The notes below the pieces were generated by a model. It was not told where the DNA came from, ran no database searches, and saw only the letters and a program-made list of their open reading frames with translations. Shown here piece after piece: positions 407 to 54,479 of a stretch of DNA of 64,000 nt. Position 1 is the first letter of the stretch. Each line of letters opens with the position of its first letter. The stretch covers positions 65,941-129,940 of the forward strand of contig JAVCBU010000003.1 in the NCBI GenBank assembly GCA_037917685.1, written 5' to 3'. Made by a program: the position numbers and the translations under genes. This DNA is from Thermoproteota archaeon. GTDB lineage: Archaea; Korarchaeota; Korarchaeia; Korarchaeales; JAOZGB01.

Positions 407-2938
407 GTGAATATGAAAATCAACAATTCAACTCAAAAAGTGTTGACCATAACTCTTATAATATCACTAATTGGAACAAGCCCTTTACTCCTGGAGGGTT
501 CTCCCCCCTATCAGAATAGAGAGATAACCCTCATCTACCCTAATGGTGGAGAAACATTCTATCAAGGAGATACTATAAACATAACGTGGATCACCACGAT
601 AGACGGTAATACAGCCTCCGACGGTTTTATATCGATCTTACTGGTTTACGACGGCGAGGTTATGGCTATAGATTGTGTTTCGAATACCTGTGAGGAGGGT
701 TCTCCTGGGAAATACTACTGGACGATCCCGAACCCTATAAACTCATCCAACTGCAAGATAAGAGTTATGTGGGTTCCAAGCTGTGATTCTTATCCGTACT
801 GCTATGACGAAAGTGACGGTGTATTTTCGATTTTTAACCCTTACAAAATAGAACTTTTATCTCCAAACGGCGGCGAAAGCCTGGGGGCTGGCGAAACATT
901 TACAATAACCTGGAGGGCAACATTCAAAGGAACGGAGACCGCAAGCGGGTTTGTTAGGATAAAATTTTCATCTAATGGTGGGCAGACTTGGGATACGGTT
1001 GAATGTACATCTAATACTGGTAGTTACGATTGGCAGGTGCCGGGGGAGCCCTCTGACCAGTGTCTGATAAAAGTTGAATGGGTAGAATCATGCACAGCCC
1101 AGGAGCCCTTCTCTACAGATGAATCCGATGGATACTTCAGCATATCCACTCTCTACTATCTCATTTTCCATTCGCCAACCCAGGGAGAAACGCTTGAAGG
1201 CAACAGTGAATATGAAATTGAATGGTCAACCTACTACGCCGGGAACGATATAACAGGGCTATACTACGTCAGAATATACTTCTCCTCGGATAATGGGGTA
1301 ACATGGAGTTATGTTGATTGCGTATTAAATACTGGGAGCTATCAGTGGTCCGTTCCAAATGTAGACTCCACGAACTGCGCACTTAAATTTCAGCTAGTAC
1401 CAGGTTGCAATAGCGTATCCATATATGTGTCTAATGTTTCACCTACCTTTTCGATTAAAAGGGAGAGAGACTTCACGTTAAACGTTGTTCCAAACCAGCA
1501 GGAAGTAGATCAGGGAGAGTGGGCCAACTATACCATTACGATAACACCGGTCTCAGGCTTCAACGAGACCTTAACCATAACTGTGAAAGGTCTCCCCCAA
1601 GAGGCGACGTACCAGCTTGTCCAGCAAACCCAGTGGCAGTACAAGCTCTCAGTGAAAGTTACAGATACCTATGGAACATTTACCATAAATATAACGGCTG
1701 AGGGAGGAGGCAAAACCCATTCTAGGACCGTTACGCTAATCGTAAACCCTACATCTCAACCCACCACTACGCCTCCGCCTTCGACTACTCCTCCTCCCAC
1801 TTCTACTCAGCCTCCTACTACGCCTCCGCCTTCGACTACTCCTCCTCCCACTTCTACTCAGCCTCCTACTACGCCTCCGCCTTCGACTACTCCTCCTCCC
1901 ACTTCTACTCAGCCTCCTACTACGCCTCCGCCTTCGACTACTCCTCCTCCCACTTCTACTCAGCCTCCTACTACGCCTCCGCCTTCGACTACTCCTCCTC
2001 CCACTTCTACTCAGCCTCCTACTACGCCTCCGCCTTCGACTACTCCTCCTCCCACTTCTACTCAGCCTCCTACCACACCGCCGGGTGGAAAACTAGACTT
2101 TAAGATCGTCGTATCCCCCTTGGAGGTGAATGAGACTATACGGGGAACCTTCAAAGTCAACGTTAAGGTTGAGAGGATCTCCGGGAGCGGTAAAGTCAGT
2201 CTTAGGGTTAAAGGCCTCCCATCATCAGCAATCTGGGATATAACCCCCCAGGAACTAACGCCACCAGGGACAGCAGTGATCACTGTAAAACTTGGAAACA
2301 CACCCGGAGACTTTAACATGACGGTAATAGCTGTCTCAGGAAATGTTAAAAGGGTAAAGGTGGTCAAAGTTCACGTCCGAAAGCCTAGTGCATGCGTCAT
2401 TGCAACAGCAGCTTATGGTTCTGAGGAAGCCTATGAGGTTCAGATGCTAAGAGAGTTTAGAGACGACATAATTATGAATAGTATCTTGGGTTCCTCTTTT
2501 ATGAAGGCATTCAATACCTACTACTATAGCTTCAGCCCCATCGTTGCAGGAATCATCGCAAGGTTCTCTACGCTCAGAACGCTTGCTAGAACCTTAATAA
2601 CACCCTTACTTGCAATTTTAGACTTTGCAAAGCATGTATATTATGCAATACCATTTTTAAATAGTGAACTCAGAATCTTAGCCATGGGTCTTCTAGCTAG
2701 CAGTCTATTTTCAACCCTGTACTTTTTCCCTCTCGCTCTTGTCGGCATTAAAGTTAAGAAGGGAGATTTAAAGCTGATGTTAAAGCTTCAAAGCGGCCTC
2801 GTAGCAGCTGTGCTTTTCCTGCTTTTATCGGAGATGTATGCTCTCCTGTCTGTTCTCACATCACTGCTTGTAGTAAATATGATGCTTATAGTTCAATCCT
2901 TCATTTGGTATACTGTAGGATCAATGCTTCAGGGATAG
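407..2938 (+). CDS. Large secreted/membrane-anchored surface protein with repeated beta-sandwich modules and a Thr/Pro/Ser linker
   Basis: It has an N-terminal hydrophobic signal/anchor (LTITLIISLIGTSPLLL) and three ~105-aa repeats, each opening (Y/S)P(N/T)(G/Q)GE...I(T/E)W. Two Ig-like modules flank a (TTPPPSTTPPPTSTQPP)x6 linker. The C-terminus carries a CVIATAAYGSE...LREFRDD motif followed by several hydrophobic helices. Confidence 0.7.
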   Translation: MNMKINNSTQKVLTITLIISLIGTSPLLLEGSPPYQNREITLIYPNGGETFYQGDTINITWITTIDGNTASDGFISILLVYDGEVMAIDCVSNTCEEGSPGKYYWTIPNPINSSNCKIRVMWVPSCDSYPYCYDESDGVFSIFNPYKIELLSPNGGESLGAGETFTITWRATFKGTETASGFVRIKFSSNGGQTWDTVECTSNTGSYDWQVPGEPSDQCLIKVEWVESCTAQEPFSTDESDGYFSISTLYYLIFHSPTQGETLEGNSEYEIEWSTYYAGNDITGLYYVRIYFSSDNGVTWSYVDCVLNTGSYQWSVPNVDSTNCALKFQLVPGCNSVSIYVSNVSPTFSIKRERDFTLNVVPNQQEVDQGEWANYTITITPVSGFNETLTITVKGLPQEATYQLVQQTQWQYKLSVKVTDTYGTFTINITAEGGGKTHSRTVTLIVNPTSQPTTTPPPSTTPPPTSTQPPTTPPPSTTPPPTSTQPPTTPPPSTTPPPTSTQPPTTPPPSTTPPPTSTQPPTTPPPSTTPPPTSTQPPTTPPPSTTPPPTSTQPPTTPPGGKLDFKIVVSPLEVNETIRGTFKVNVKVERISGSGKVSLRVKGLPSSAIWDITPQELTPPGTAVITVKLGNTPGDFNMTVIAVSGNVKRVKVVKVHVRKPSACVIATAAYGSEEAYEVQMLREFRDDIIMNSILGSSFMKAFNTYYYSFSPIVAGIIARFSTLRTLARTLITPLLAILDFAKHVYYAIPFLNSELRILAMGLLASSLFSTLYFFPLALVGIKVKKGDLKLMLKLQSGLVAAVLFLLLSEMYALLSVLTSLLVVNMMLIVQSFIWYTVGSMLQG
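1766..2071 (+). repeat. Six perfect tandem copies of a 51-nt unit (ACTACGCCTCCGCCTTCGACTACTCCTCCTCCCACTTCTACTCAGCCTCCT) inside the surface-protein CDS
   Basis: Read directly from the sequence. Unit starts are at 1766 and 1817 and then every 51 nt, with no mismatches. The repeat is in frame and encodes 17 aa per unit. Confidence 0.95.
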
Positions 2939-5262: not shown

Positions 5263-6528
5263 ATGGAGAAGCTACAAGTAGATGTCCCGAAAGGGGCGAC
5301 TCTTCTTGTCGAAGGAGAATCGCTGTTCGAGTTTGTACATGGGAAAGCTGAAATCTTTGGATATGAGCCGAAGCCCGGCTTCAAGTTTAGAATTGAAAGG
5401 TTTAAAGCATCACCAATCTATGCTGTTGAAAACTTCCGAGCCAGAATTACAGGTGGAAAAGTGTCACTCTATCCTGGGAAAACCATACCTGAGAGCTGGT
5501 CTAAAGTGTTAGATGAGGTGAGAGGAGAATCTAGGCCTGTTATTGTCATGGTGGTAGGGGGCGTAGACTTGGGTAAGACAGGGCTTATCACATACATTGC
5601 AAATAGGCTGACGATGATGGGCGAAAAAGTAGGCATAGTTGACGCCGACACGGGTCAAAGCAGTATAGGTCCTCCAACAACCATTGGTCTGGGCATTTTG
5701 ACGGAGCCTGTTCCATCGCTAAGCATTGTGAAGCCGTTTGACGCCGTATTTATCGGGTCTACTTCGCCATCGGGCATCCTTGAAAGGTCCGTGTCTGCTG
5801 TTGTGCAGATGGTCAGGCTTGCCGTGAAGTCTGGTGCTGGTATGATTCTGGTGGACACAACAGGCTGGGTTTCAGGTGAGGGGGGAAGGCAGCTGAAGCT
5901 TGCAAAGGCAGACGCTATCTCTCCGAACCTGATAGTTGCCCTTGAGAGAGGGATGGAGTTAGAGCATTTATTAAAGTTTTGGGAGAGATTTTACAAGGTT
6001 TTAAGAGTAGATCCTGCTGTTGAGCTTAGATCACGTAGTAGAGACGAGAGATACAGTATAAGAGGAGATATTTATAGGAGATGGTTTGAAGGTGCCGAAG
6101 CAAAGCTTTTTTCGATAGAGGATTACGTCTACTGTAACAGTTTCCTATTCACGGGTGTAAGGCTTCCGCCTGAAAGCTTAAAAGAGTATGCTGACCGCTA
6201 CGGGTTTGAAGTTCTCTATGGGGAAGCAGTTGAAGACAAAATACTCCTAGTGGTTGGGGAGTCCACAGAACAGCATAGTACTGAAAGTTCGGGGAGACTC
6301 CACATTGTTAATCTGGAGATGATTAAGAATGTTCTTGTATCTTTCAGGTCAAGAGAGAAGAGATTCCTAGGGCTAGGCATAATTCTTGACGTAGACTTTG
6401 AAAATGGCAAGCTTAAAGTATTAACAAGAGTAGATTCATCCAGGGCTGAGGCCATAGAGTTTGGAAATATAAAAGTAAACCCTGAAACCTTCCAAGAGGA
6501 AGGTTGGATTCAAAGGTGGTGTTTCTAA
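5263..6528 (+). CDS. Clp1/Grc3-family polynucleotide 5'-hydroxyl kinase-like P-loop protein
   Basis: The P-loop VVGGVDLGKTGL is followed by VDADTGQSS, matching the Clp1-type GxxDxGK(S/T) ... DxDxGQ arrangement. Confidence 0.6.
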   Translation: MEKLQVDVPKGATLLVEGESLFEFVHGKAEIFGYEPKPGFKFRIERFKASPIYAVENFRARITGGKVSLYPGKTIPESWSKVLDEVRGESRPVIVMVVGGVDLGKTGLITYIANRLTMMGEKVGIVDADTGQSSIGPPTTIGLGILTEPVPSLSIVKPFDAVFIGSTSPSGILERSVSAVVQMVRLAVKSGAGMILVDTTGWVSGEGGRQLKLAKADAISPNLIVALERGMELEHLLKFWERFYKVLRVDPAVELRSRSRDERYSIRGDIYRRWFEGAEAKLFSIEDYVYCNSFLFTGVRLPPESLKEYADRYGFEVLYGEAVEDKILLVVGESTEQHSTESSGRLHIVNLEMIKNVLVSFRSREKRFLGLGIILDVDFENGKLKVLTRVDSSRAEAIEFGNIKVNPETFQEEGWIQRWCF

Positions 6529-17276: not shown

Positions 17277-18066
17277 GCCTATCAGCCAGGAGATATGCTA
17301 TTTCCCGCATCATCATAAATTTGTAGCCTCTATCCATTAGCAACTTTATAATCTTTCCTAACATGCCGATTTTAACCCTGCCTTCATAGCAAGCATGGCT
17401 GTAGATTCCAATATATTCTTCTTCGACTCCACTATAGTAGTGTAAAATAGCATCGCTACTGTATCCTGCTGCCTCCAACTCTTCTATTGATAGAGCATTT
17501 ACGGGAACCTGAATAATGCCATTGACAATTCTAGGGTTCCCCCTTCTAGAGCTGCTAACGTAGAGAAAGCCGATTCTCTTCGCTGCCCATGCAGCCTTCA
17601 TGTCGAACTTGAAGGCTGGAGGCGCAAATCCAAGCGGCCTTATACCCGACGTTTCCTCTAGGAGGTCTGTGGACAGCTTTAAATCTCTGAGTAGTTCTTC
17701 AGCCTTAAGGCTTTCATACTTAGAGGTCCAAAGTAGATGGTTATACCCGTGGCATCCTATCTCATGCCCCTTTTCGACTATAAGCCTTAACACTCTTGTA
17801 TTGCTTAATCCAACCATCGGCTTCCAGACGAGGCCTGCGAAAACGTTGACTCCATACTTCCTAAAAGGGTTTATTTTTAATGCGTAGCCTGCGCTTCCCC
17901 GCCTAAAAATGTTCAGGAAGGTTCTGTCCGGCCCCATTGTTATGAAAAATGTTGCGCTTACACCAAGCTCGCCTAGTTGTCTGAGAAGCTTAGGGACGCC
18001 TTTTGATAGCCCAATCCAAGTGTCTACGTCTATTCTGAGTGTGGCTGTTTTACCCAGTCTTACCAC
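17236..18066 (-). CDS. Polysaccharide deacetylase (CE4 / NodB homology domain)
   Basis: The stretches RIDVDT...ATFFI...HEIGCHGYNH contain the CE4 metal-binding and catalytic motifs. Confidence 0.8.
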   Translation of the reverse strand: MVRLGKTATLRIDVDTWIGLSKGVPKLLRQLGELGVSATFFITMGPDRTFLNIFRRGSAGYALKINPFRKYGVNVFAGLVWKPMVGLSNTRVLRLIVEKGHEIGCHGYNHLLWTSKYESLKAEELLRDLKLSTDLLEETSGIRPLGFAPPAFKFDMKAAWAAKRIGFLYVSSSRRGNPRIVNGIIQVPVNALSIEELEAAGYSSDAILHYYSGVEEEYIGIYSHACYEGRVKIGMLGKIIKLLMDRGYKFMMMREIAYLLADRLEDTSNIRSRAYR

Positions 18067-18763
18067 CAGCTATGTAGGAAGCTGCAAAATACCAGAATAC
18101 AGATAGAAATGCGAGGAAAATTGCGAATCCAAGATACTTGTGAACTTCCATAAGGGGTTTATATCCATAATTGTATCCTATCAATGACAGGATTACAACT
18201 CTCAGAACATTTCCGGAATACGCACCCCCGACCCCTAATGCGAGAGAAACAACCGCCCTCCCCTTGTTTACATCCCTTCCCATGTCAACTATCATGAAAA
18301 GAAATGTACCGACAAATATTAGGAAAGAGTGAACCCCGGAACATCTCGCATCAATATAGATAGCAGGTATCTTGGATGGAGGGCTATTGAATACAATACT
18401 GTAATTTCCAACCTTTGCTTCTACTCCTATTAAATTTAACACCTTGTTTGATAGGAAAATGGTGAACCTTGTCATACCGTCTGCAAACCTCGAATTTAAA
18501 ATGTAACTGTCATAGTTTGTTAACAAAAACATCCAGAAGCCAAATATGGCGATAGCGAGGTAGAGACTCGGTACTTTAAATTTTGCAAGCTGTGGTATCT
18601 CAGGGAGAATAAGGTACACTGAGAGTACGAACATTAATAGGCCGGCGGGGGGTAGGAGGAAATTCCTGTAACTTTCGAACAGCAGATAGAGTATTACTGC
18701 ACATATAAATGCTGAAATACCCAGTATAAGTCTAAACCTTCTATTCACATGCCTTCTATACAC
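18050..18763 (-). CDS. Exosortase/archaeosortase-family integral membrane protein (putative)
   Basis: It is polytopic. The stretches IDARCSGVHSFLIF (Cys), SGNVLRVVIL (Arg) and EVHKYLGFAIF (His) appear in the order expected for the exosortase/archaeosortase Cys-Arg-His triad. Confidence 0.55.
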   Translation of the reverse strand: MYRRHVNRRFRLILGISAFICAVILYLLFESYRNFLLPPAGLLMFVLSVYLILPEIPQLAKFKVPSLYLAIAIFGFWMFLLTNYDSYILNSRFADGMTRFTIFLSNKVLNLIGVEAKVGNYSIVFNSPPSKIPAIYIDARCSGVHSFLIFVGTFLFMIVDMGRDVNKGRAVVSLALGVGGAYSGNVLRVVILSLIGYNYGYKPLMEVHKYLGFAIFLAFLSVFWYFAASYIAGGKTG

Positions 18764-20551: not shown

Positions 20552-21061
20552 ATGTTGGCTGATAAACTCAGGAGGAAGTTTGAAGGACAGGAGACAAGGC
20601 TCAGGATAGCTGAGGCCATAATTGAAAATGGCCTAAGAATAGCTGAAGACGGTAAAATATACTGTGGAGATTTCGAAATCCCCCATTCTAAGATAGCTAA
20701 GGCGTTAGGCGTAGACAGAAGGACTGTAAAGGCCACGGTTGACAGTATAATAGGTGACGAACTGTTAAGAGACATTTTCACCAGAATAAAGCCTGCAGGA
20801 CCATCCATGAAGGATATAGCAATACACCTAGGCTACAGCTGTGTCGAAATATACGTTAAGGACCCAAGTAAGCCCGGAATAGTCTCAAAGATTACCGGGC
20901 TTCTAGCGGGCTATGGTGTGAGTATCAGACAGGTGATAGCAGACGACCCACAGCTTGTCCCCCATCCAAAGCTTACACTGATAACAGATGGTAGAATCCC
21001 TGGCTCGATAATGGATAGGATTTCAGCTGTGGAAGGAATAGAGAAGGTGATCGTTTACTAG
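20552..21061 (+). CDS. HTH + ACT-domain regulator of amino-acid metabolism (COG2150-like)
   Basis: An N-terminal HTH-like HSKIAKALGVDRRTVKATV is followed by a C-terminal ACT-like VEIYVKDPSKPGIVSKITGLLAGYGVSIRQV. It is divergent from the ParB-like/trpB2 pair. Confidence 0.6.
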   Translation: MLADKLRRKFEGQETRLRIAEAIIENGLRIAEDGKIYCGDFEIPHSKIAKALGVDRRTVKATVDSIIGDELLRDIFTRIKPAGPSMKDIAIHLGYSCVEIYVKDPSKPGIVSKITGLLAGYGVSIRQVIADDPQLVPHPKLTLITDGRIPGSIMDRISAVEGIEKVIVY

Positions 21062-21891
21062 CTGTAAACATAGTACACTTCTAGCACTCCTATAAGAAAC
21101 ATGAGGAGCCAAATCTTCCAGCTCCACTTCACAACTTTAGCCCCGTCCAAAACCCAGAATGGAAGCAGGTTGAAGAGGCCAAGAGAAGCATTTATCAAGG
21201 CTCCATATTTGCCTATAAGGTAGTACGAGCTTCCAACCCAAGAATACATTTTTACGACTGAGAAGAGGAGAAACATGATAAGATTCACCGTTGGACCTGC
21301 GGCTGATATAAGCCCGTACTTCCTCTTATCATCCGGCGTTGGGCTGCCAGCGAATATGACAACAGCACCTGGAGCTGCGAAGACTATGAATCCAGCTATT
21401 GCCGATAATATTGTGAAAAGGATGCCTAGAGGGGACATTCTGAATTCTGCCCAGTATCCAAATTTCTGAGCCATAAACTTATGTCCTAGTTCATGGAATA
21501 AGAACCCTGTAAGGAGACCTGGAAAGATTATCTTAACCACCCTTAGCGATAACGGCCTCCATGGCCTATAGCTGAAGGCGAATGTCAATGCTGCTAGTGC
21601 AATGATGATCTGAACTATCTCAGTTTTCGAGAACCTAAATATACCTCTGGCAGACGGATAAACCCTTTCTGGGTAGTGAGGTGCCGGTTCTCTTTCCATA
21701 ATGTAGGGCTTTTCAACGTGGAATATTGTGGGGGATAGGAGATCCCCGCATCTGATGCACCTGTAGTTTAGTGGGCCTTCCCCGCATCTCGCACAGTAGG
21801 TTGCATTGCACGAGGGACAACTATAGAATTCCTCCCCCGTTTCTCTACCGCAGTAGTAGCAGTATGGCATCTTTACACCTTCCCAGTCCAT
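21058..21891 (-). CDS. Site-2 protease (peptidase M50) with N-terminal zinc ribbon
   Basis: N-terminal CxxC pairs (CYYCG...CPSC...CARC...CIRC) are present. HELGHKF (HExxH) sits in a TM helix, and the protein has multiple TM segments. Confidence 0.8.
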   Translation of the reverse strand: MDWEGVKMPYCYYCGRETGEEFYSCPSCNATYCARCGEGPLNYRCIRCGDLLSPTIFHVEKPYIMEREPAPHYPERVYPSARGIFRFSKTEIVQIIIALAALTFAFSYRPWRPLSLRVVKIIFPGLLTGFLFHELGHKFMAQKFGYWAEFRMSPLGILFTILSAIAGFIVFAAPGAVVIFAGSPTPDDKRKYGLISAAGPTVNLIMFLLFSVVKMYSWVGSSYYLIGKYGALINASLGLFNLLPFWVLDGAKVVKWSWKIWLLMFLIGVLEVYYVYS

Positions 21892-24117
21892 CTTCCTGAT
21901 GGATATATGTTCCTCTCGTAGTCTTTCGGCGTTGGTATTGCTTCAGGTAGCCCCTTTCTCTTCCTTATCTCCATTATCTTCTCCATTTGCATCTTCTCTG
22001 GTAGAGGCTTAAAGCCTGCTGGCTCATATCCCCAGAAAGCTTTGCCCTGGGTTGCGCTTCTAAACTCATCAGCCAGACCCTTAGTTTCGGCAGCAGGAAT
22101 CTCACCATATATCTTTACTACTCCTGCCTCCCTTGTCATGTTCCGTATAAGACCCCTTCTCCTGTTTAGTATGCCGGCGATGGTTCCCTCTGTTCCCTCC
22201 GGGGTTCGAATGTCTATTCTTAGAATTGGCTCGTAAAGCTTTGGTTCTGAGGTTAGGAATGATATGTGAAGCGCAGAGATCATCATGCTTAAGATTTCGG
22301 TGTAGCCTGTGTGCGCAGGGTCAACGTGGACTGTTGCATCTGTCAGTACAACCTTTGCATTCATGAGGGGCTCTCTAGCAAGAGTTGCACCATTACAGTA
22401 GTCTATAAATATTGTCTGCAGGTACGTCTTGATTCTATCAAGCCTTTGAGCGCCCTTAGTATCGTCTATGAGGATGTTAGTTCCATGTATCTGCCATATG
22501 TTTCTGGCGAACCTTGTCTCCCATCCTGCCACGTCATGTATTATTTTCGCTCTTTCCCTGGAGTCCTGGTCTTGGGATATCTTCCCTGTTCTAATAAGCT
22601 CTATAACCTCCGGTTCTAGGGGCTCTATGTAAAGTTTAACCCTGTTGTGGCCGTTGTTAGATTTAGTGTGTATTTCAACCCCTCTCCCAGTCGGTACTTC
22701 CCTGTAAACTATTATAGGTTCTGAAACCTTTATCTTTACCATCTCGTTTATTCTTTTATATAAAATTTCAAGCTGCAACGGGTCTATCCCAGAAAGTATA
22801 TACTCACCGGACTCCTTGTCTATTCTAAAGCTTGCAGTCGGGTCGGCGGCCGTCCAAAGTCTTACAGCTTTCTCCAGCTTATCTATATACTGTGGATTCT
22901 CAGGTTGAATAGCAATGCTGACAACAGGCTCAGCCACATACTTGATCTCTTTAAATGGAGGTAGGTTTACTCCCTCGTCCATTATTGTCTCTCCAGCAGG
23001 GCAGACGAAGCCGTATATCGCGAAGAGGTTGCCTGCTGGAATCCTTGGTACATCTAGTATGTCGGTTATCTCCATTACACCCAGCCTTTGAACTCGCCCA
23101 GGCCTCTTCGCCCATGCAAGCCAGACATCTCTTCCGGCTTCTAGTGTTCCGGAGAACACTCTCCCTATGAGGATCGGCCTCTTAGACTTGGGGTGTATGA
23201 ATATCTTAGTAATCATGCCGAGAAGAGGGCCATTCGGATCCATTGAAAGTAAAGCCTTCCCTACCTCGCTTTCAACATCGCCGTCCCATATTCTTGGTAT
23301 CTTGTATTTCTGGGCTGTTGCAGGATCTGGCAGGTGTCTAATAACCATCTCTAGAAGCGCTTCGTCCAGGGGCAGGTTCTTTCTCAGCCATGCCTCGTCT
23401 CCCTGACTGTACTTCTCAAACACTACATTTGGGCTTATCTTCTTCCTGACAAGGATATCCTTTGTGAAACCCCAGCCATGCTTGGCGCTACCGATTGCTA
23501 TTGTTCCATCGTCGAAGCTAACCTTCCAGTCCTTGAACGGTGCAACCTCTCTTATAAGCCTGTTAACTTCAAGCGCTATAGATGTAAGCCTTTCATTAAC
23601 CTCCTTTGGCGAGAGTTTTAGTTCCTTTATCAACCTGTCAACTTTGTTGATGAAAAGCACAGGCTTACATGCTTCTTCTCCAACGGCAAGTCTGATGTTA
23701 GTCTCAGTTTGAGTCATTACTCCTTCCAAAGCGTCGACTAAGATTATAACGCCGTCGCTTCCTCTAAGGGCTCGACTTACTTCTCCGGTAAAGCTAATAT
23801 GCCCCGGTGTATCGTTGAGCTGAAGTAGGTACGTTTTCCCTCCATAGTCAAAGGTTAGCAGAACTACACTTGTAAAAATGGTTATTCCACGCTCCTGCTC
23901 CTCCTCATCATTCGACCCACCCTATAGGTGGTTAGTCGGTGAGGAGGAGCTGCCCGGCAGCCTCTTCACTCATAAGACCCGCTCTGCGCAGTAGGTAATC
24001 GGTGGCAGTTGTTTTTCCATGATCTATGTGTGCTACAATACTGAAGATCCGCGTCTGTTCAGGCTTTGTTTCCATCACGAACTTCCTGATTTCTTCAGGG
24101 TTCTTTACTCTGACCAT
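21873..24117 (-). CDS. Elongation factor 2-family translational GTPase, interrupted by a 22-nt insert; proposed spliced CDS join(24117..23933,23910..21873) = 740 aa
   Basis: The N-terminal ORF has AHIDHGKTT. After the interruption the sequence reads [20 protein letters not shown], and domains II-V resemble aEF-2. Exon 1 is 185 nt and exon 2 is 2038 nt, totalling 2223 nt (741 codons including the stop). Confidence 0.85.
23911..23932 (-). other. Candidate 22-nt BHB mini-intron (mRNA sense ACCACCUAUAGGGUGGGUCGAA)
   Basis: The insert lies between two 3-nt bulges (UAA, AAU) that are separated by a 4-bp helix (CGAC/GUCG). Inner (CCACC/GGUGG) and outer (CUCCUCCUCA/UGAGGAGGAG) helices flank them. 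Removing it restores the frame and the conserved motif. Confidence 0.6.
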
Positions 24118-24156
24118 TCAGATTCACCGCTACTAAACCATAAAGCTCGGGGAGCC

Positions 24157-24170
24157 TTAAAAATATTAAC
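24157..24170 (-). promoter_or_regulatory. TATA-box-like element upstream of the EF-2-family gene
   Basis: In minus-strand sense the sequence reads GTTAATATTTTTAA, about 40 nt upstream of the ATG at 24117. Confidence 0.3.
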
Positions 24171-25808: not shown

Positions 25809-27138
25809 TTAAAGCCCTCTCAACTGCCTTTTCCAAAACCCCTCTTAGTAGGGTTATTATCCTTCTAAGCCCCGTCCATGTTGTGGCTTCAGCTCGAACC
25901 TTTACTTCTGGCTTCGTGTTCGATGCTCTTATCAGAAGCCACCCTTCATCGAAGACAGCCTTAACGCCGTCTATCCTATTAAGTTCCACCCCGATCTCGC
26001 CGAGAAGTTCAGATGTATAATCTACAACCTTGAACTTTAACCTGTCATCAACCGGAATTGAAATTGCAGGTATGGAGCAGTACCTTGGAACCGAATCTGC
26101 GAGAAGCGAAAGTTTACCAATTCTTGAAACTATCCATGCCATCCTAAGTGTTGCATAGAATGCATCACTGTACAAGCCGACATCCCCAAAGTAGAAGTGG
26201 CTGCTTATTTCACCTCCAAGTAGTGCTTTCTTTTCAATCATAAGATCCATTATGTAAGCATGGCCCACTCTAGACTCTAACGGGATTCCTCCCACACTCC
26301 TCACAATCCTGGGAACTGTCATGCTGCAACTAACCTCATACACAACAATACCTCCAGGCTTTCGTCTTAGCATGTCCTTTGCGTAAATACAAAGTACAAC
26401 ATCCCCGCTGACACCTTCCCCCCTGTCATCAACAAAGACCGACCTGTCAGCATCACCGTCGTAGGCTACTCCGAAATCAGCATTCCAATTTAATACTTCG
26501 GATTTAAGGTCAGACAACTCTTCAGGGGATGGCTCCGGGCTTCTACATCTAAATTCAGGGTCAACTTCGTTATTTATCAGCTTAGCGTTGAAACCGTCAA
26601 AAAGTCTGTCAACGATGGTGCCTGCGGCTCCGCATCCGACATCTACAACAAACCTAGCCTTCATGCCAAGTGGGAATAAACTTCTTAGATAGTTGACATA
26701 GTCGTCTTTAAGCCAGCCAGCCTCAGAAACCTCCCCGCCGCCTTCAGGTTTAATATTAGAAAAGAATAAATTCCTAACCTCTTCAAGCCCTCTATCCATA
26801 CATATAACTCTTGCGCCTCTACCACACAGTTTAAAACCGTTCCATTCAGGAGGGTTATGGCTGGCTGTTACTATGACTCCACCGTCAGCCTTAATTTTCC
26901 TAATGCCGTAGTAAACAGAGGGTGTAGGTGCCAGGCCCATTTTATAAACCGTGCAGCCAGCCATTGTAAGCCCGTCAATGAGAGCTTTAGATAGAGATCG
27001 GCTGCTTTTTCTCCCATCCCAGCCGACAACAACGCTTTTTCCAATATATCTACCAAAGGCTAAACCAAGCTTTTCAGCAAAGCTTTCATCTATATCTTCC
27101 CCATATATGCCTCTAATGTCGTAAGCCCTGAAAACCAC
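25789..27138 (-). CDS. Phosphoglucomutase/phosphomannomutase (alpha-D-phosphohexomutase)
   Basis: It has the active-site loop VTASHNPPEWNGFK, the metal loop YDGDADR and a GGEISSH sugar-binding loop. Confidence 0.9.
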   Translation of the reverse strand: MVFRAYDIRGIYGEDIDESFAEKLGLAFGRYIGKSVVVGWDGRKSSRSLSKALIDGLTMAGCTVYKMGLAPTPSVYYGIRKIKADGGVIVTASHNPPEWNGFKLCGRGARVICMDRGLEEVRNLFFSNIKPEGGGEVSEAGWLKDDYVNYLRSLFPLGMKARFVVDVGCGAAGTIVDRLFDGFNAKLINNEVDPEFRCRSPEPSPEELSDLKSEVLNWNADFGVAYDGDADRSVFVDDRGEGVSGDVVLCIYAKDMLRRKPGGIVVYEVSCSMTVPRIVRSVGGIPLESRVGHAYIMDLMIEKKALLGGEISSHFYFGDVGLYSDAFYATLRMAWIVSRIGKLSLLADSVPRYCSIPAISIPVDDRLKFKVVDYTSELLGEIGVELNRIDGVKAVFDEGWLLIRASNTKPEVKVRAEATTWTGLRRIITLLRGVLEKAVERALNERSKS

Positions 27139-27193
27139 ACCTACAACTTATCACATCAACCTTATTATTTTTCCCAGAGACGTTCATACTGGC

Positions 27194-34624: not shown

Positions 34625-34660
34625 CCATGTGGTTCATCCTACGCTACTAACAACATTAAC

Positions 34661-34671
34661 ATAAATATTTA
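34661..34671 (+). promoter_or_regulatory. TATA-box-like element (ATAAATATTTA) positioned to start transcription near 34695-34700
   Basis: An AT-rich box lies about 28-38 nt upstream of the GGCCGCC stem that opens the structured element at 34699. Confidence 0.3.
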
Positions 34672-34698
34672 ACATGAGGATGGGATAATTCAAATAGA

Positions 34699-34768
34699 GG
34701 CCGCCTGATGAGATCTTCAGCCTTGCCTGAAGAGTGATGACTCCGTGCAGAAAACGAAGGCGGCCTGA
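34699..34768 (+). ncRNA. C/D-box-like structured RNA or 5' leader (non-canonical spacing)
   Basis: The boxes are UGAUGA (34706-34711), CUGA (34727-34730), UGAUGA (34735-34740) and CUGA (34765-34768), in C-D'-C'-D order. A 7-bp GGCCGCC/GGCGGCC closing stem and an internal 7-bp hairpin UCUUCAG/CUGAAGA are present. It shares sequence blocks with the sRNA candidate at 63704. Confidence 0.35.
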
Positions 34769-34782
34769 ATTATGGTGATAAC

Positions 34783-52544: not shown

Positions 52545-53399
52545 TTAAACCTCTATTGTTATAACCACGTATAGCTGAGTGGTGAAGGCCTCAAAACCCA
52601 TTTCCGACAGTTGTTTCGCCACGTTTTCTGCGAATCCCTTATCACCGGGAGCTCTAGGGGCTAGAATAACCTTCTCGGGGTTATTCAACCAGTTTAGCGC
52701 TTGAACTAGCACTTCTGTGTGGGTAGGCGTAAATACGGCTACGTCGCAACTACCAGCTTTAGAGATGAACTCCTCGACATCAGTTGACTCCCCGTAGAAT
52801 AGTGAAACTTTCCCCACTTTTATGAGGTAAGCCGCCGTCGACTGAGCAGCTGGATTTATAAAGGATTCCACTTGTGCTAAGCCAAACCTATAGGTCTTGT
52901 TATCCTCAACAGTGACTACAAGTTCCTTAAGGCTATCAGGCAAAGTGAGAGATACAGCTTCTGTCGTCAGTATTGGGCAACTGTATTTCTTAGCAATCTG
53001 TATAAGCAAGTCTGAATCGTAATTATCAGAGCCTGTAATGACTATTACATCTAACCATGGGATTAATTCAGCTTCATCACCAGAGAAAAGGTTTGGATCC
53101 ACCAGCATACTAAAACCGCAAACCTCATACAGGAAACTATCCCTTGACAGTTGTACAATAATTATTTTGTTCTCAGCCCCGGTTGTAGAAGTGAACTCAT
53201 CAATGGCATTTTTAAATTCTATCCTAACCTCCACCCTGAAGAACTTGAAGTATATAAATGCGGCTCCAGTCAGCATAGCTGACAAAGCTATAACAATGTA
53301 GATGAGTGATATCACTAACCGGCGTTTCCCACGTGCTGAAGCCATCAGTTCAGCTTTAGAACCATAAGGAATTTTAAAGTTGACGCCCCTGAATAGCAT
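52545..53399 (-). CDS. Membrane-anchored protein of unknown function (weak MBL-fold-like layout without the His motif)
   Basis: It has an N-terminal TM helix (LVISLIYIVIALSAMLTGAAFIYF). The remainder is alpha/beta-like. No catalytic motif was recognised. Confidence 0.35.
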   Translation of the reverse strand: MLFRGVNFKIPYGSKAELMASARGKRRLVISLIYIVIALSAMLTGAAFIYFKFFRVEVRIEFKNAIDEFTSTTGAENKIIIVQLSRDSFLYEVCGFSMLVDPNLFSGDEAELIPWLDVIVITGSDNYDSDLLIQIAKKYSCPILTTEAVSLTLPDSLKELVVTVEDNKTYRFGLAQVESFINPAAQSTAAYLIKVGKVSLFYGESTDVEEFISKAGSCDVAVFTPTHTEVLVQALNWLNNPEKVILAPRAPGDKGFAENVAKQLSEMGFEAFTTQLYVVITIEV

Positions 53400-54479
53400 G
53401 TGACATGTACACTAGGAATAGTCAAGGGGGGCAGATACGCTGAAGTAGCCACCACACCCTACAGTCTTAAAGACGTCTGGACAGGCAGGATAAAAATATT
53501 CTACGAGCTCGCGCAGAAGCTTGAAAGTATAGTGTATATTCAGCCGCAGCCGGCCAGGCGTGAAGACCTCCTCTATGCTCACACGGAGGACTACATAGAG
53601 TACGTGGCTAAAGAGAGCATGAAAGGCCGGGGCTACCTGGACTATGGGGATACTCCATCGTATAAGGGGGTTTACGAGGATGTCCTACTTCTTGTAGGGG
53701 GAACCCTCAAGGCACTCGAATACGTCTATGAGGGGAAGGTTGACCATGCGTTCGCACCAAACGGGGGTTTCCACCACGCTGAAGCCTCATCTGCAGGTGG
53801 GTTCTGTGTGTTCAACGATGTTGCCATCGCCGCCAGAAAAGCAGTTAGAGACTACGGGTTTAGGAGGGTTGCCATTATAGACATCGATGGCCACCACGGT
53901 AACGGAACTCAGTGGATACTTTACAAGGATCCAATACTAAAGTTCTCATTCCACAGATACGGAGGATACTTCTACCCTGGGACAGGATGGATAGACGAGA
54001 GAGGCGAAGGAGAGGGAGAAGGCTACAACTACAATATACCCTTACCAGCAGGCTCCGGGGACGATGCATTCCTCTACGCTTTCAAAAACATAGTTGTGCC
54101 AATACTGGAGGGCTACAGGCCTGAAGCGATTATATCCCAGCTTGGCGCTGACGGCCACCGTGGAGATCCCCTTGTAGGGCTAAATCTCACAATTAAGACA
54201 TACGCAAACGTTGGTTCACACCTTCATAGAATAGCCCACAAATATAATTCAATACTAATAGGTACCGGAGGAGGCGGATACCAATATAGCGAGGTAGCAA
54301 AGGCCTGGCTAACAATAGCAAAGTCATGGATTTACTGCTGGGAAGACTTCTGGAACATAATGGGAGAAATTAAGGGGACAGTTTCGGACCCGTCCACCCT
54401 ACACATGATCAAAGATGTTGTCGAAAAACACAGGAAGGTTGCATCACAGAAGTTAAACATAGAATTCCCCGAGGCATGA
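53400..54479 (+). CDS. Histone deacetylase-family enzyme (AcuC/acetoin utilisation/deacetylase)
   Basis: GGFHHAEASSAGGFCVFNDVAIAA and IDIDGHHGNGTQ are present, giving the HDAC catalytic His pair and Zn ligands. Confidence 0.85.
   Translation: MTCTLGIVKGGRYAEVATTPYSLKDVWTGRIKIFYELAQKLESIVYIQPQPARREDLLYAHTEDYIEYVAKESMKGRGYLDYGDTPSYKGVYEDVLLLVGGTLKALEYVYEGKVDHAFAPNGGFHHAEASSAGGFCVFNDVAIAARKAVRDYGFRRVAIIDIDGHHGNGTQWILYKDPILKFSFHRYGGYFYPGTGWIDERGEGEGEGYNYNIPLPAGSGDDAFLYAFKNIVVPILEGYRPEAIISQLGADGHRGDPLVGLNLTIKTYANVGSHLHRIAHKYNSILIGTGGGGYQYSEVAKAWLTIAKSWIYCWEDFWNIMGEIKGTVSDPSTLHMIKDVVEKHRKVASQKLNIEFPEA

Follow-up and report, generated by a model that had tools for sequence, protein, structure and literature searches.

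Introns bounded by the motif called bulge-helix-bulge (BHB) are reportedly known from archaeal tRNA and rRNA (work ascribed to Marck and Grosjean in 2003 and to Kjems and Garrett in 1991), and the pre-mRNA of cbf5 is said to carry one as well (ascribed to Watanabe in 2002 and Yoshinari in 2006). In Crenarchaeota, the cbf5 intron is 16-44 nt long, lies within the coding sequence (CDS) and is bounded by a BHB (Yokobori 2009, PMC2738675). Another archaeal mRNA, that of Haloferax volcanii HVO_1309, has a BHB intron in its 5' untranslated region (UTR), and the 2020 paper on it still names cbf5 as the only additional example of an mRNA BHB intron (Schwarz et al. 2020, PMC7714728). Here a further candidate is described, in the gene for archaeal elongation factor 2 (aEF-2) on a stretch of 64,000 nt (the window, numbered from its first base) of contig JAVCBU010000003.1, from a Thermoproteota archaeon that GTDB places in the Korarchaeia. 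The 22 nt at 23932..23911 on the minus strand are, with a probability of about 0.85, an archaeal BHB intron within the CDS of a bona fide aEF-2. The sequences thus very probably make aEF-2 the second host gene for CDS-internal BHB introns in archaea, after cbf5. Full-text literature searches returned no report of a BHB intron in EF-2. An earlier reading of this DNA (the first-pass annotation) had held that mRNA BHB introns are established only for cbf5, which stands for introns within the CDS and has to be widened by the published HVO_1309 leader intron.

The candidate shares several traits with the cbf5 intron, some copies of which shift the reading frame while others (33, 36 and 39 nt) stay in frame, and which is too short for a homing endonuclease and patchily distributed through gain and loss (PMC2738675). 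The cbf5 intron is also routinely mis-annotated as two open reading frames (ORFs) or a frameshift, and occurs in hosts with a broad-specificity splicing endonuclease (EndA). It sits at a catalytic-residue codon of cbf5; the aEF-2 intron works alike but is not of that family. The host gene here is the translocase aEF-2 rather than a pseudouridine synthase, and the hosts are Lokiarchaeia and a deep clade of which few members have been sampled and in which aEF-2 groups with those of Asgard and marine Korarchaeota. Furthermore, aEF-2 has three insertion points within 6 nt, with one homologous intron body in two registers 6 nt apart. Splicing has been shown experimentally for cbf5 and is predicted for aEF-2.

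As is predicted for the aEF-2 mRNA, the HVO_1309 mRNA is a substrate of the archaeal splicing endonuclease, and removal of its intron appears to be needed for efficient expression. That intron, however, lies in an untranslated leader and belongs to a euryarchaeon whose enzyme is of the alpha'2 type; both in vivo and in vitro verification exist for it. With the tRNA and rRNA introns, the aEF-2 candidate has in common the hBHBh' architecture (3-nt bulges, 4-bp helix), predicted cuts after the second bulge base, and mini-introns of similar size. It differs in that the substrate is an mRNA, the exon strands of its helix are also constrained as codons, and no tRNA body aids recognition.

Interrupted frame, gene identity and predicted fold

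On the minus strand, an ATG at 24117 starts a 61-codon ORF that is closed by a TAA at 23934-23932. The remainder of EF-2 lies in a different frame, which itself carries a TAG at 23924-23922, past the TAA, and in which the reading of ORFs and start codons finds no ATG, GTG or TTG until a TTG at 23729. Both stops were confirmed, and with them the first-pass statement that no single slip joins the two halves. Excision of 22 nt (23932..23911) would remove the third base of the upstream-frame TAA together with the TAG that closes the downstream frame, and leaves a CDS of 2223 nt encoding 740 aa, the same values that had been proposed, when recomputed. In the predicted spliced RNA, ...CACCGACUA is joined to UGAUGAGGAG over a 22-nt gap (GACUA to UGAU), the codon for Tyr62 is rebuilt from UA and U on the two sides of the junction, and the predicted protein carries the junction-spanning peptide ...LLLTDYDEEEQER. 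For the window's intron, cutting after bulge base 1 or base 2 gives identical RNA, as was claimed when the joined codon was said to be UAU for either position. The parts of the gene are as follows.

23933..24117, minus strand: aEF-2 exon 1, from the ATG at 24117, with 61 codons plus the UA of Tyr62; contains the P-loop AHIDHGKTT
23911..23932, minus strand: candidate 22-nt BHB intron, A-CCACCUAUAGGGUGG-GUCG-AA; orthologous inserts lie at the same nucleotide
21873..23910, minus strand: aEF-2 exon 2, from the U completing Tyr62 through the stop codon at 21875-21873
24124..24169, minus strand: candidate expression signals, a TATA-like A/T-rich box TTAATATTTTTAA (24169..24157) and GGTGA (24128..24124) 6 nt upstream of the ATG

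The spliced protein contains the five EF-2 domains (Pfam GTP_EFTU, D2, EFG_III, EFG_IV and EFG_C) and aligns with Pyrococcus horikoshii aEF-2 (PDB 5h7j) at E = 8e-178, gap-free across the junction (5h7j segment EELAGKQLVLDFDEQEQARGITI), bearing out a comparison with Pyrococcus aEF-2 that the first-pass annotation had made. Against TIGR00490, the NCBIfam aEF-2 equivalog, it scores 650.6 bits over positions 12-717 of 720, which is below the curated cut-off of 738.45 and fits a divergent Asgard/Kor-type aEF-2 clade. Asgard and marine Korarchaeota have two EF-2 family genes: a bona fide aEF-2, in which those members that lack diphthamide have R replaced by T in HxDxxHRG, and a paralogue, aEF-2p, without the domain IV loop altogether (Narrowe et al. 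2018, PMC6143161). The domain IV loop of the spliced protein reads HVDPAHTG. Because this HxDxxHTG-type loop is kept, the interrupted gene is identified as the translocase proper and not the aEF-2p paralogue, which narrows the earlier label of an EF-2-family gene to bona fide aEF-2.

The 56 nt at 23951..23896 fold into the hBHBh' structure in both the minimum free energy (MFE) and the centroid prediction, at -33.2 kcal/mol compared with -15.2 ± 2.8 for shuffles (z = -6.5), while a 52-nt segment reaches -28.3 kcal/mol (z = -4.4); 0 of 200 shuffles fold as stably as the BHB segment. The geometry first recognised by eye therefore holds, with a 12-bp outer helix carrying one bulged A, a 4-bp CGAC/GUCG helix and a 6-bp inner hairpin. 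In both folds the bulges, UAA and AAU, measure 3 nt each and lie on opposite strands with the 4-bp helix between them. The elements of the fold are listed below.

23939..23950, minus strand: outer helix h, 5' strand, GCUCCUCCUCAC; codons Q-L-L-L-T; partner 23897..23909; 96.6% of alignment cells paired
23897..23909, minus strand: outer helix h, 3' strand, G-[A bulged]-UGAGGAGGAGC; codons D-E-E-E-Q
23935..23938, minus strand: central helix H, exon strand, CGAC; its partner is intron bases 23916..23913
23913..23916, minus strand: central helix H, intron strand, GUCG
23932..23934, minus strand: 5' bulge UAA; predicted cut after the second base, between 23933 and 23932
23910..23912, minus strand: 3' bulge AAU; predicted cut after the second base, between 23911 and 23910
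23917..23931, minus strand: inner hairpin h', CCACCU-AUA-GGGUGG

In the pre-mRNA, the exon codons CUC-CUC-CUC-ACC-GAC pair with GAU-GAG-GAG-GAG and the 3' end of the insert. Since the exon strands of the outer helix consist of Leu CUC and Glu GAG codons, the LLLTD-Y-DEEE motif provides its own helix.

How specific is this site within the window? A naive strict BHB scan of the whole window yielded 215 weak chance matches and missed the real site because of the bulged A. Loose BHB-like geometry being so common, the scan was given the rule that excision must join frames: the second scan required that excision join two long open frames and that the unspliced RNA meet a stop. Here the EF-2 site comes out on top by a wide margin, its flanking pairs numbering 12 + 6 as opposed to at most 14 in total for any chance match, and this frame-joining scan found no second split gene in the window. 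The chance matches straddle gene boundaries or involve antisense ORFs. The runners-up (e.g. 34627-34780, 53258-53446 and 27026-27184) were rejected for their weak flanking helices; in 34627-34780, the only one inspected, the two frames joined are those of an ORF that runs antisense to a gene and of the gene next to it.

The TATA-like box and GGTGA are probably the expression signals of the aEF-2 gene. On the same strand, the aEF-2 stop region shares 19 nt (21873-21891) with the start of a downstream M50-type protease gene. The order EF-2 then M50 protease also occurs in a related locus (L001), which suggests that the two genes are co-transcribed.

The insert in close relatives

In a protein search, no intact orthologue of 736-740 aa exceeded 66% identity (these came from Odin, Baldr, Thor, Heimdall and others), and the three closest matches (97, 79 and 68% identity) were N-terminally truncated. 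On the contigs of all three, a 61-aa ORF is followed by the rest of the gene, and a DNA-pattern scan of metagenomes added two further loci. Each insert lies at the same nucleotide, after GAC UA. The same 22 nt occur in the window and in the Logan assembly of run SRR14241346 (L079), and a 22-nt version with a different loop occurs in ENA and JGI assemblies (L001 and L068); longer inserts have 28 nt (L002), 30 nt (L003 and L004) and 31 nt (L069). The first-pass interpretation of a mini-intron in one gene is thus supported and at the same time corrected, as the insert is common to a deep clade and not unique to this genome. NCBI labels of the close relatives conflict (Bathyarchaeota, Korarchaeota, Thermoproteota), outside the clade nothing matches the window's Topo VI-B at more than 54% identity, and the closest intact relatives of its aEF-2 are Odin/Baldr at 66%. 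A scan of genome contigs returned only intron-less orthologues, with peptide patterns that were query-specific and one of which spanned the junction.

All sources are metagenome assemblies, and L002, on a contig of about 3x coverage, seems to have a frameshift close to its 3' end, which would favour an assembly or sequencing artefact as the origin of the 22 nt. Identical or homologous inserts were nevertheless assembled independently in at least six datasets by different pipelines (NCBI metagenome-assembled genomes, ENA, JGI and Logan). An artefact is left with next to no probability, and the earlier concern on this point is answered.

The insert lengths also bear on whether the message could be read without splicing. 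The 22-, 28- and 31-nt inserts shift the frame, and only those of 30 nt keep it. The 61-aa P-loop piece and a C-terminal piece might be made separately and form a split EF-2, or a frameshift or stop readthrough might bridge the gap. Readthrough could be workable only for the 30-nt in-frame variants, such as that of L003/L004, where reading through a single TAA would add 10 residues. A single frameshift is excluded in the window by the TAG at 23924-23922, which closes the downstream frame after the TAA, and in L003 by an insert that is already in frame; no single recoding rule covers all four lengths, but BHB excision does. As for two polypeptides, the first 60 codons of exon 2, with the G2 (RGITI) and G3 (DTPGH) motifs, lie upstream of the earliest in-frame start, the TTG at 23729, and encode protein 100% identical to that of L001. 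With no start codon before 23729 and with the codons conserved, translation can therefore reach this part only by continuing from exon 1, which excludes two polypeptides. This whole group of explanations is highly improbable.

Splicing at a BHB further predicts that the helices persist as sequences change, and the alignment of orthologues proposed in the first-pass annotation shows the insert kept at the same nucleotide with its helices maintained by compensatory changes. The inner hairpins are unrelated in sequence and fully paired (CCACCU/GGGUGG in the window, CCAUACAGC/GCUGUGUGG in L002, CUGCCUGCA/UGCAGGCAG in L003), the replacement hairpins of the relatives having 9-10 bp. In L002, a synonymous exon change from ACC to ACG is matched by a change in the intron, giving a central helix GGAC/GUCC versus CGAC/GUCG. 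Across five distinct sequences from three lineages, 97.4% of alignment cells are paired, compared with 39-55% when the partners are slid by 1-3 columns, and six base pairs are changed on both sides, including the exon-intron change from C-G to G-C. In 500 shuffles, neither the covariation score nor the percentage paired nor the count of double-sided changes ever came up to the observed value.

Selection on both exons is strongly purifying. By the Nei-Gojobori method on the spliced CDS, the window and L001 differ with dS = 1.01 and dN = 0.012, and dN/dS is 0.012 in both exons (17 synonymous and 1 non-synonymous differences in exon 1, 262 and 19 in exon 2); L003 and L069 give dN/dS = 0.03. No other stop or frameshift interrupts the 2.2 kb in lineages diverged to 68% identity. 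These figures bear directly on the idea that the locus is a pseudogene or has received a small palindromic insertion, the BHB-like fold being a by-product of the palindrome and of complementary Leu CUC and Glu GAG codons. Gene callers do give two ORFs in every assembly, and, with two EF-2 family genes in Asgard and marine Korarchaeota (PMC6143161), one copy might be dispensable. Ordinary decay is not what is seen, however: an insert of varied length stays at the same nucleotide with its stems conserved and its loop free, the HxDxxHTG loop of a functional translocase is kept, and above all the purifying selection on both exons, at dS 1.0, speaks for a working gene. A pseudogene has, accordingly, only a very small probability.

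Within the intron itself, the window and L001 differ at four positions, all among the five central loop bases, with 0 of 17 differences in the stem and bulge bases; by our arithmetic, all four would fall in the loop with a chance of 5/7315. Nine exon codons make up the exon side of the BHB helices (23897-23950 versus L001 1489-1542), and among them there is no synonymous difference, whereas pS is 0.55 gene-wide. Because synonymous changes are absent there and affect 55% of synonymous sites over the gene, these nine codons are constrained by both protein and RNA structure.

The empty site indicates what the spliced product should look like. Twenty-five intron-less Asgard and Euryarchaeota orthologues are colinear here (T/M-D-[Y/L/F/T/S]-D-[E/D]-E-E), and the nearest ones read ACA GAC TAC GAC (TDYD), with TDYDEEEQ at the junction. 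A cut after the second bulge base in the window gives GAC UA joined to U GAU, and thus Tyr as in the empty-site orthologues. In L003 and L069, with bulges UAA and AGU, Tyr is restored only by a cut after base 2, and the same holds for Asp in L075, a Lokiarchaeia variant treated below; the canonical cleavage register is supported because only base-2 cuts work in these three loci.

The only rival with some formal fit is translational bypassing in the style of T4 gene 60, in which ribosomes would take off from the Asp61 GAC beside the UAA, slide past the hairpin and land on a downstream Asp codon while the mRNA stays uncut. In T4 gene 60, too, a stop follows the codon of take-off, and a gap of 25-50 nt contains a hairpin and has matching codons on its two sides, and the window-type variants have a stop directly after GAC, then a stable hairpin, and a synonymous Asp codon 25-34 nt downstream. 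Landing on GAU, however, would yield TD-EEEQ, two conserved residues short of every intron-less orthologue (TD[YSLFT]D[DE]EE), whereas splicing is colinear. Bypassing needs neither two 3-nt bulges at exactly 4 bp nor the compensatory exon-intron pair of L002, so the double-bulge geometry and the covariation would go unexplained, and the Lokiarchaeia-type inserts have no stop right after the take-off codon, their stops lying 3, 7 or 9 codons further on. Bypassing, to our knowledge, is documented only in T4 and some yeast mitochondria, whereas EndA and RtcB are enzymes that archaea have. Taken together, bypassing is very improbable, and excision of a BHB intron is preferred.

Lokiarchaeia-type inserts and a nearby element

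A search with the 61-aa exon-1 peptide revealed about a dozen further clusters of 52-70-aa ORFs, belonging to Lokiarchaeia/Promethearchaeota-like aEF-2 genes; 36 blocks of the collection hold one such cluster, of which 24 contigs were read, and another has 53 member sequences. Their inserts are 30 nt long, in frame and stop-containing, and occupy two sites separated by 6 nt (in L070 and L075, near 2680-2725 of the locus). One group is inserted after TD, where ACAGAU is followed by AUAGAUAAGG...CUACUGUAG and then UCG (L075-L077, L080 and L081), and the other after TDSD, where UCAGAU is followed by UUAGAAUAAGG...CUACUGAAA and then GAC (L070-L074, L083 and L084, of which L083 comes from the 2.27-Mb record CP070805.1). 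Relative to the insertion point in the window, one site is 2 nt upstream and the other 4 nt downstream, and the window's intron body is unrelated.

Each of these inserts admits a BHB with a central helix ACAG/CUGU or UCAG/CUGA, 3-nt bulges and an inner helix of 4-10 bp. Canonical cuts would produce TDSD[D/E]EEQ and, on every contig long enough to include the stop (that of L080 ends before it), a full ORF of 750 aa, and the spliced sequence equals that of an intron-less Lokiarchaeia-type gene (L082). The folds have weak outer helices and lie 0.8-2.3 kcal/mol above the MFE; as modelled, they are relaxed motifs of the kind cut by EndA with an L1 loop (PMC5829648). Selection is again purifying in appearance, with dN/dS of 0.027 between L070 and L071.

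The two Lokiarchaeia intron bodies are clearly homologous. Since they occupy registers 6 nt apart at the near-repeat ACAGAU/UCAGAU, their arrangement points to an intron that slid across this repeat. For the locus as a whole, at least two independent intron gains in a 6-nt hot spot are inferred from the sequences.

A different feature of the aEF-2 5' end was encountered in L082 (1435-4060, also L078). It is a 2.4-kb element that encodes an HNH_3 endonuclease (363 aa) and has a second ORF of 306 aa; on both sides lies a 197-bp direct repeat, made up of the aEF-2 promoter-proximal region and first 59 codons. The repeat copies differ by one mismatch, which destroys the upstream ATG, and an intact intron-less 750-aa aEF-2 lies downstream. 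The repeat ends at CAAAT before a G, 7 nt before the Lokiarchaeia intron site. Judged by this layout, the 2.4-kb element looks like a mobile element that targets the aEF-2 5' end. The exon-1-like fragments 'QLQILR*' (P0137 and P0152), considered as a fourth intron position, were rejected, being the duplicated 197-bp aEF-2 5' end that flanks the element.

Proposed mechanism, annotation and meaning

In the proposed mechanism, EndA would recognise the two bulges held 4 bp apart and cut each behind its second base, so that the ends are a 2',3'-cyclic phosphate and a 5'-OH. These would then be sealed by an RNA ligase of the RtcB type, which joins ...GAC UA to U GAU GAG... and so rebuilds the Tyr codon and the 740-aa ORF, and the 22-nt intron would be released, probably as a circle. 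Unspliced mRNA should yield only the 61-aa P-loop peptide, which would make aEF-2 synthesis dependent on the tRNA-splicing machinery. Broad-specificity EndA with an L1 loop is present in the Asgard, TACK and Korarchaeota genomes surveyed (PMC5829648).

Several points weigh against a BHB intron in the window. The case rests on sequence and computation, and the covariation sample is small. The outer helix carries one bulged A, and that of L003/L069 has an A·C mismatch, with the BHB 2.7 kcal/mol above the MFE. In a scan of 30 window ORFs, none proved to encode EndA or RtcB. An exact look-up in a collection of 15 billion proteins found 0 of 8 predicted spliced proteins; this only shows that the exons were never joined by annotators and that no full-length transcript-derived copy is included.

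Among splicing systems outside archaea, HAC1/XBP1 (cut by IRE1 and sealed by an RNA ligase, RtcB in metazoa) is alike in that a coding mRNA loses a small intron independently of the spliceosome, through an endonuclease that cuts in stem-loops and subsequent RNA ligation, and in that excision alters the reading frame and decides whether active protein is made. It differs in using IRE1 instead of EndA and another RNA motif, and its regulatory role is established, whereas such a role is purely speculative for aEF-2. It is conceivable, though unlikely, that the aEF-2 mini-intron is, rather than a passive relic, a recurrently acquired control point, a counterpart of HAC1/XBP1 that ties translocase synthesis to the tRNA-splicing endonuclease and RNA ligase, within a 6-nt-sliding hot spot invaded at least twice (in the window clade and in Lokiarchaeia) and possibly seeded by mobile elements such as the HNH element.

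Other features of the window were recorded alongside. At 5263-6528 (plus strand), some 17 kb away from the intron, a 421-aa ORF contains the P-loop domain of Clp1 (PF16575, 1.2e-35). This domain is typical of polynucleotide 5'-kinases, and eukaryotic Clp1 associates with the tRNA-splicing endonuclease. Rfam gave no match in the window and no tRNA at the gathering threshold. A 94-nt tRNA-Leu(aag) called by ARAGORN at 21483-21576 (minus strand) lies inside the Peptidase_M50-like ORF (21058-21891), is Rfam-negative and is probably false. At 407-2938 (plus strand) there is an 843-aa protein with a CFI-box-CTERM sorting domain, and at 18050-18763 (minus strand) an exosortase/archaeosortase-like membrane protein; by their domains, the two may form a protein-sorting pair.

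In the public assemblies examined, the gene is called as a 'hypothetical protein' of 61-65 aa plus a truncated or mis-started EF-2. Three of the protein records (P0121, i.e. RLG51354.1 / RLG56053.1, P0002 and P0128) have spurious N-termini from wrong-frame translation through the intron (MQLENSSSPTNCLHARAGRSS..., MLQVSFSSRTNHTASLCGSN...). Such mis-split calls spoil the sequence of a protein on which phylogenies and completeness estimates often rely as a marker.

Beyond annotation, with a second host gene it would be evident that the tRNA-splicing machinery regularly acts on mRNA. The host gene is an essential translocase, and the intron-bearing lineages include the closest archaeal relatives of eukaryotes. 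The aEF-2 introns would offer a natural system for intron gain, loss and sliding in coding sequence, and translation capacity may possibly be coupled through them to RNA-splicing capacity.

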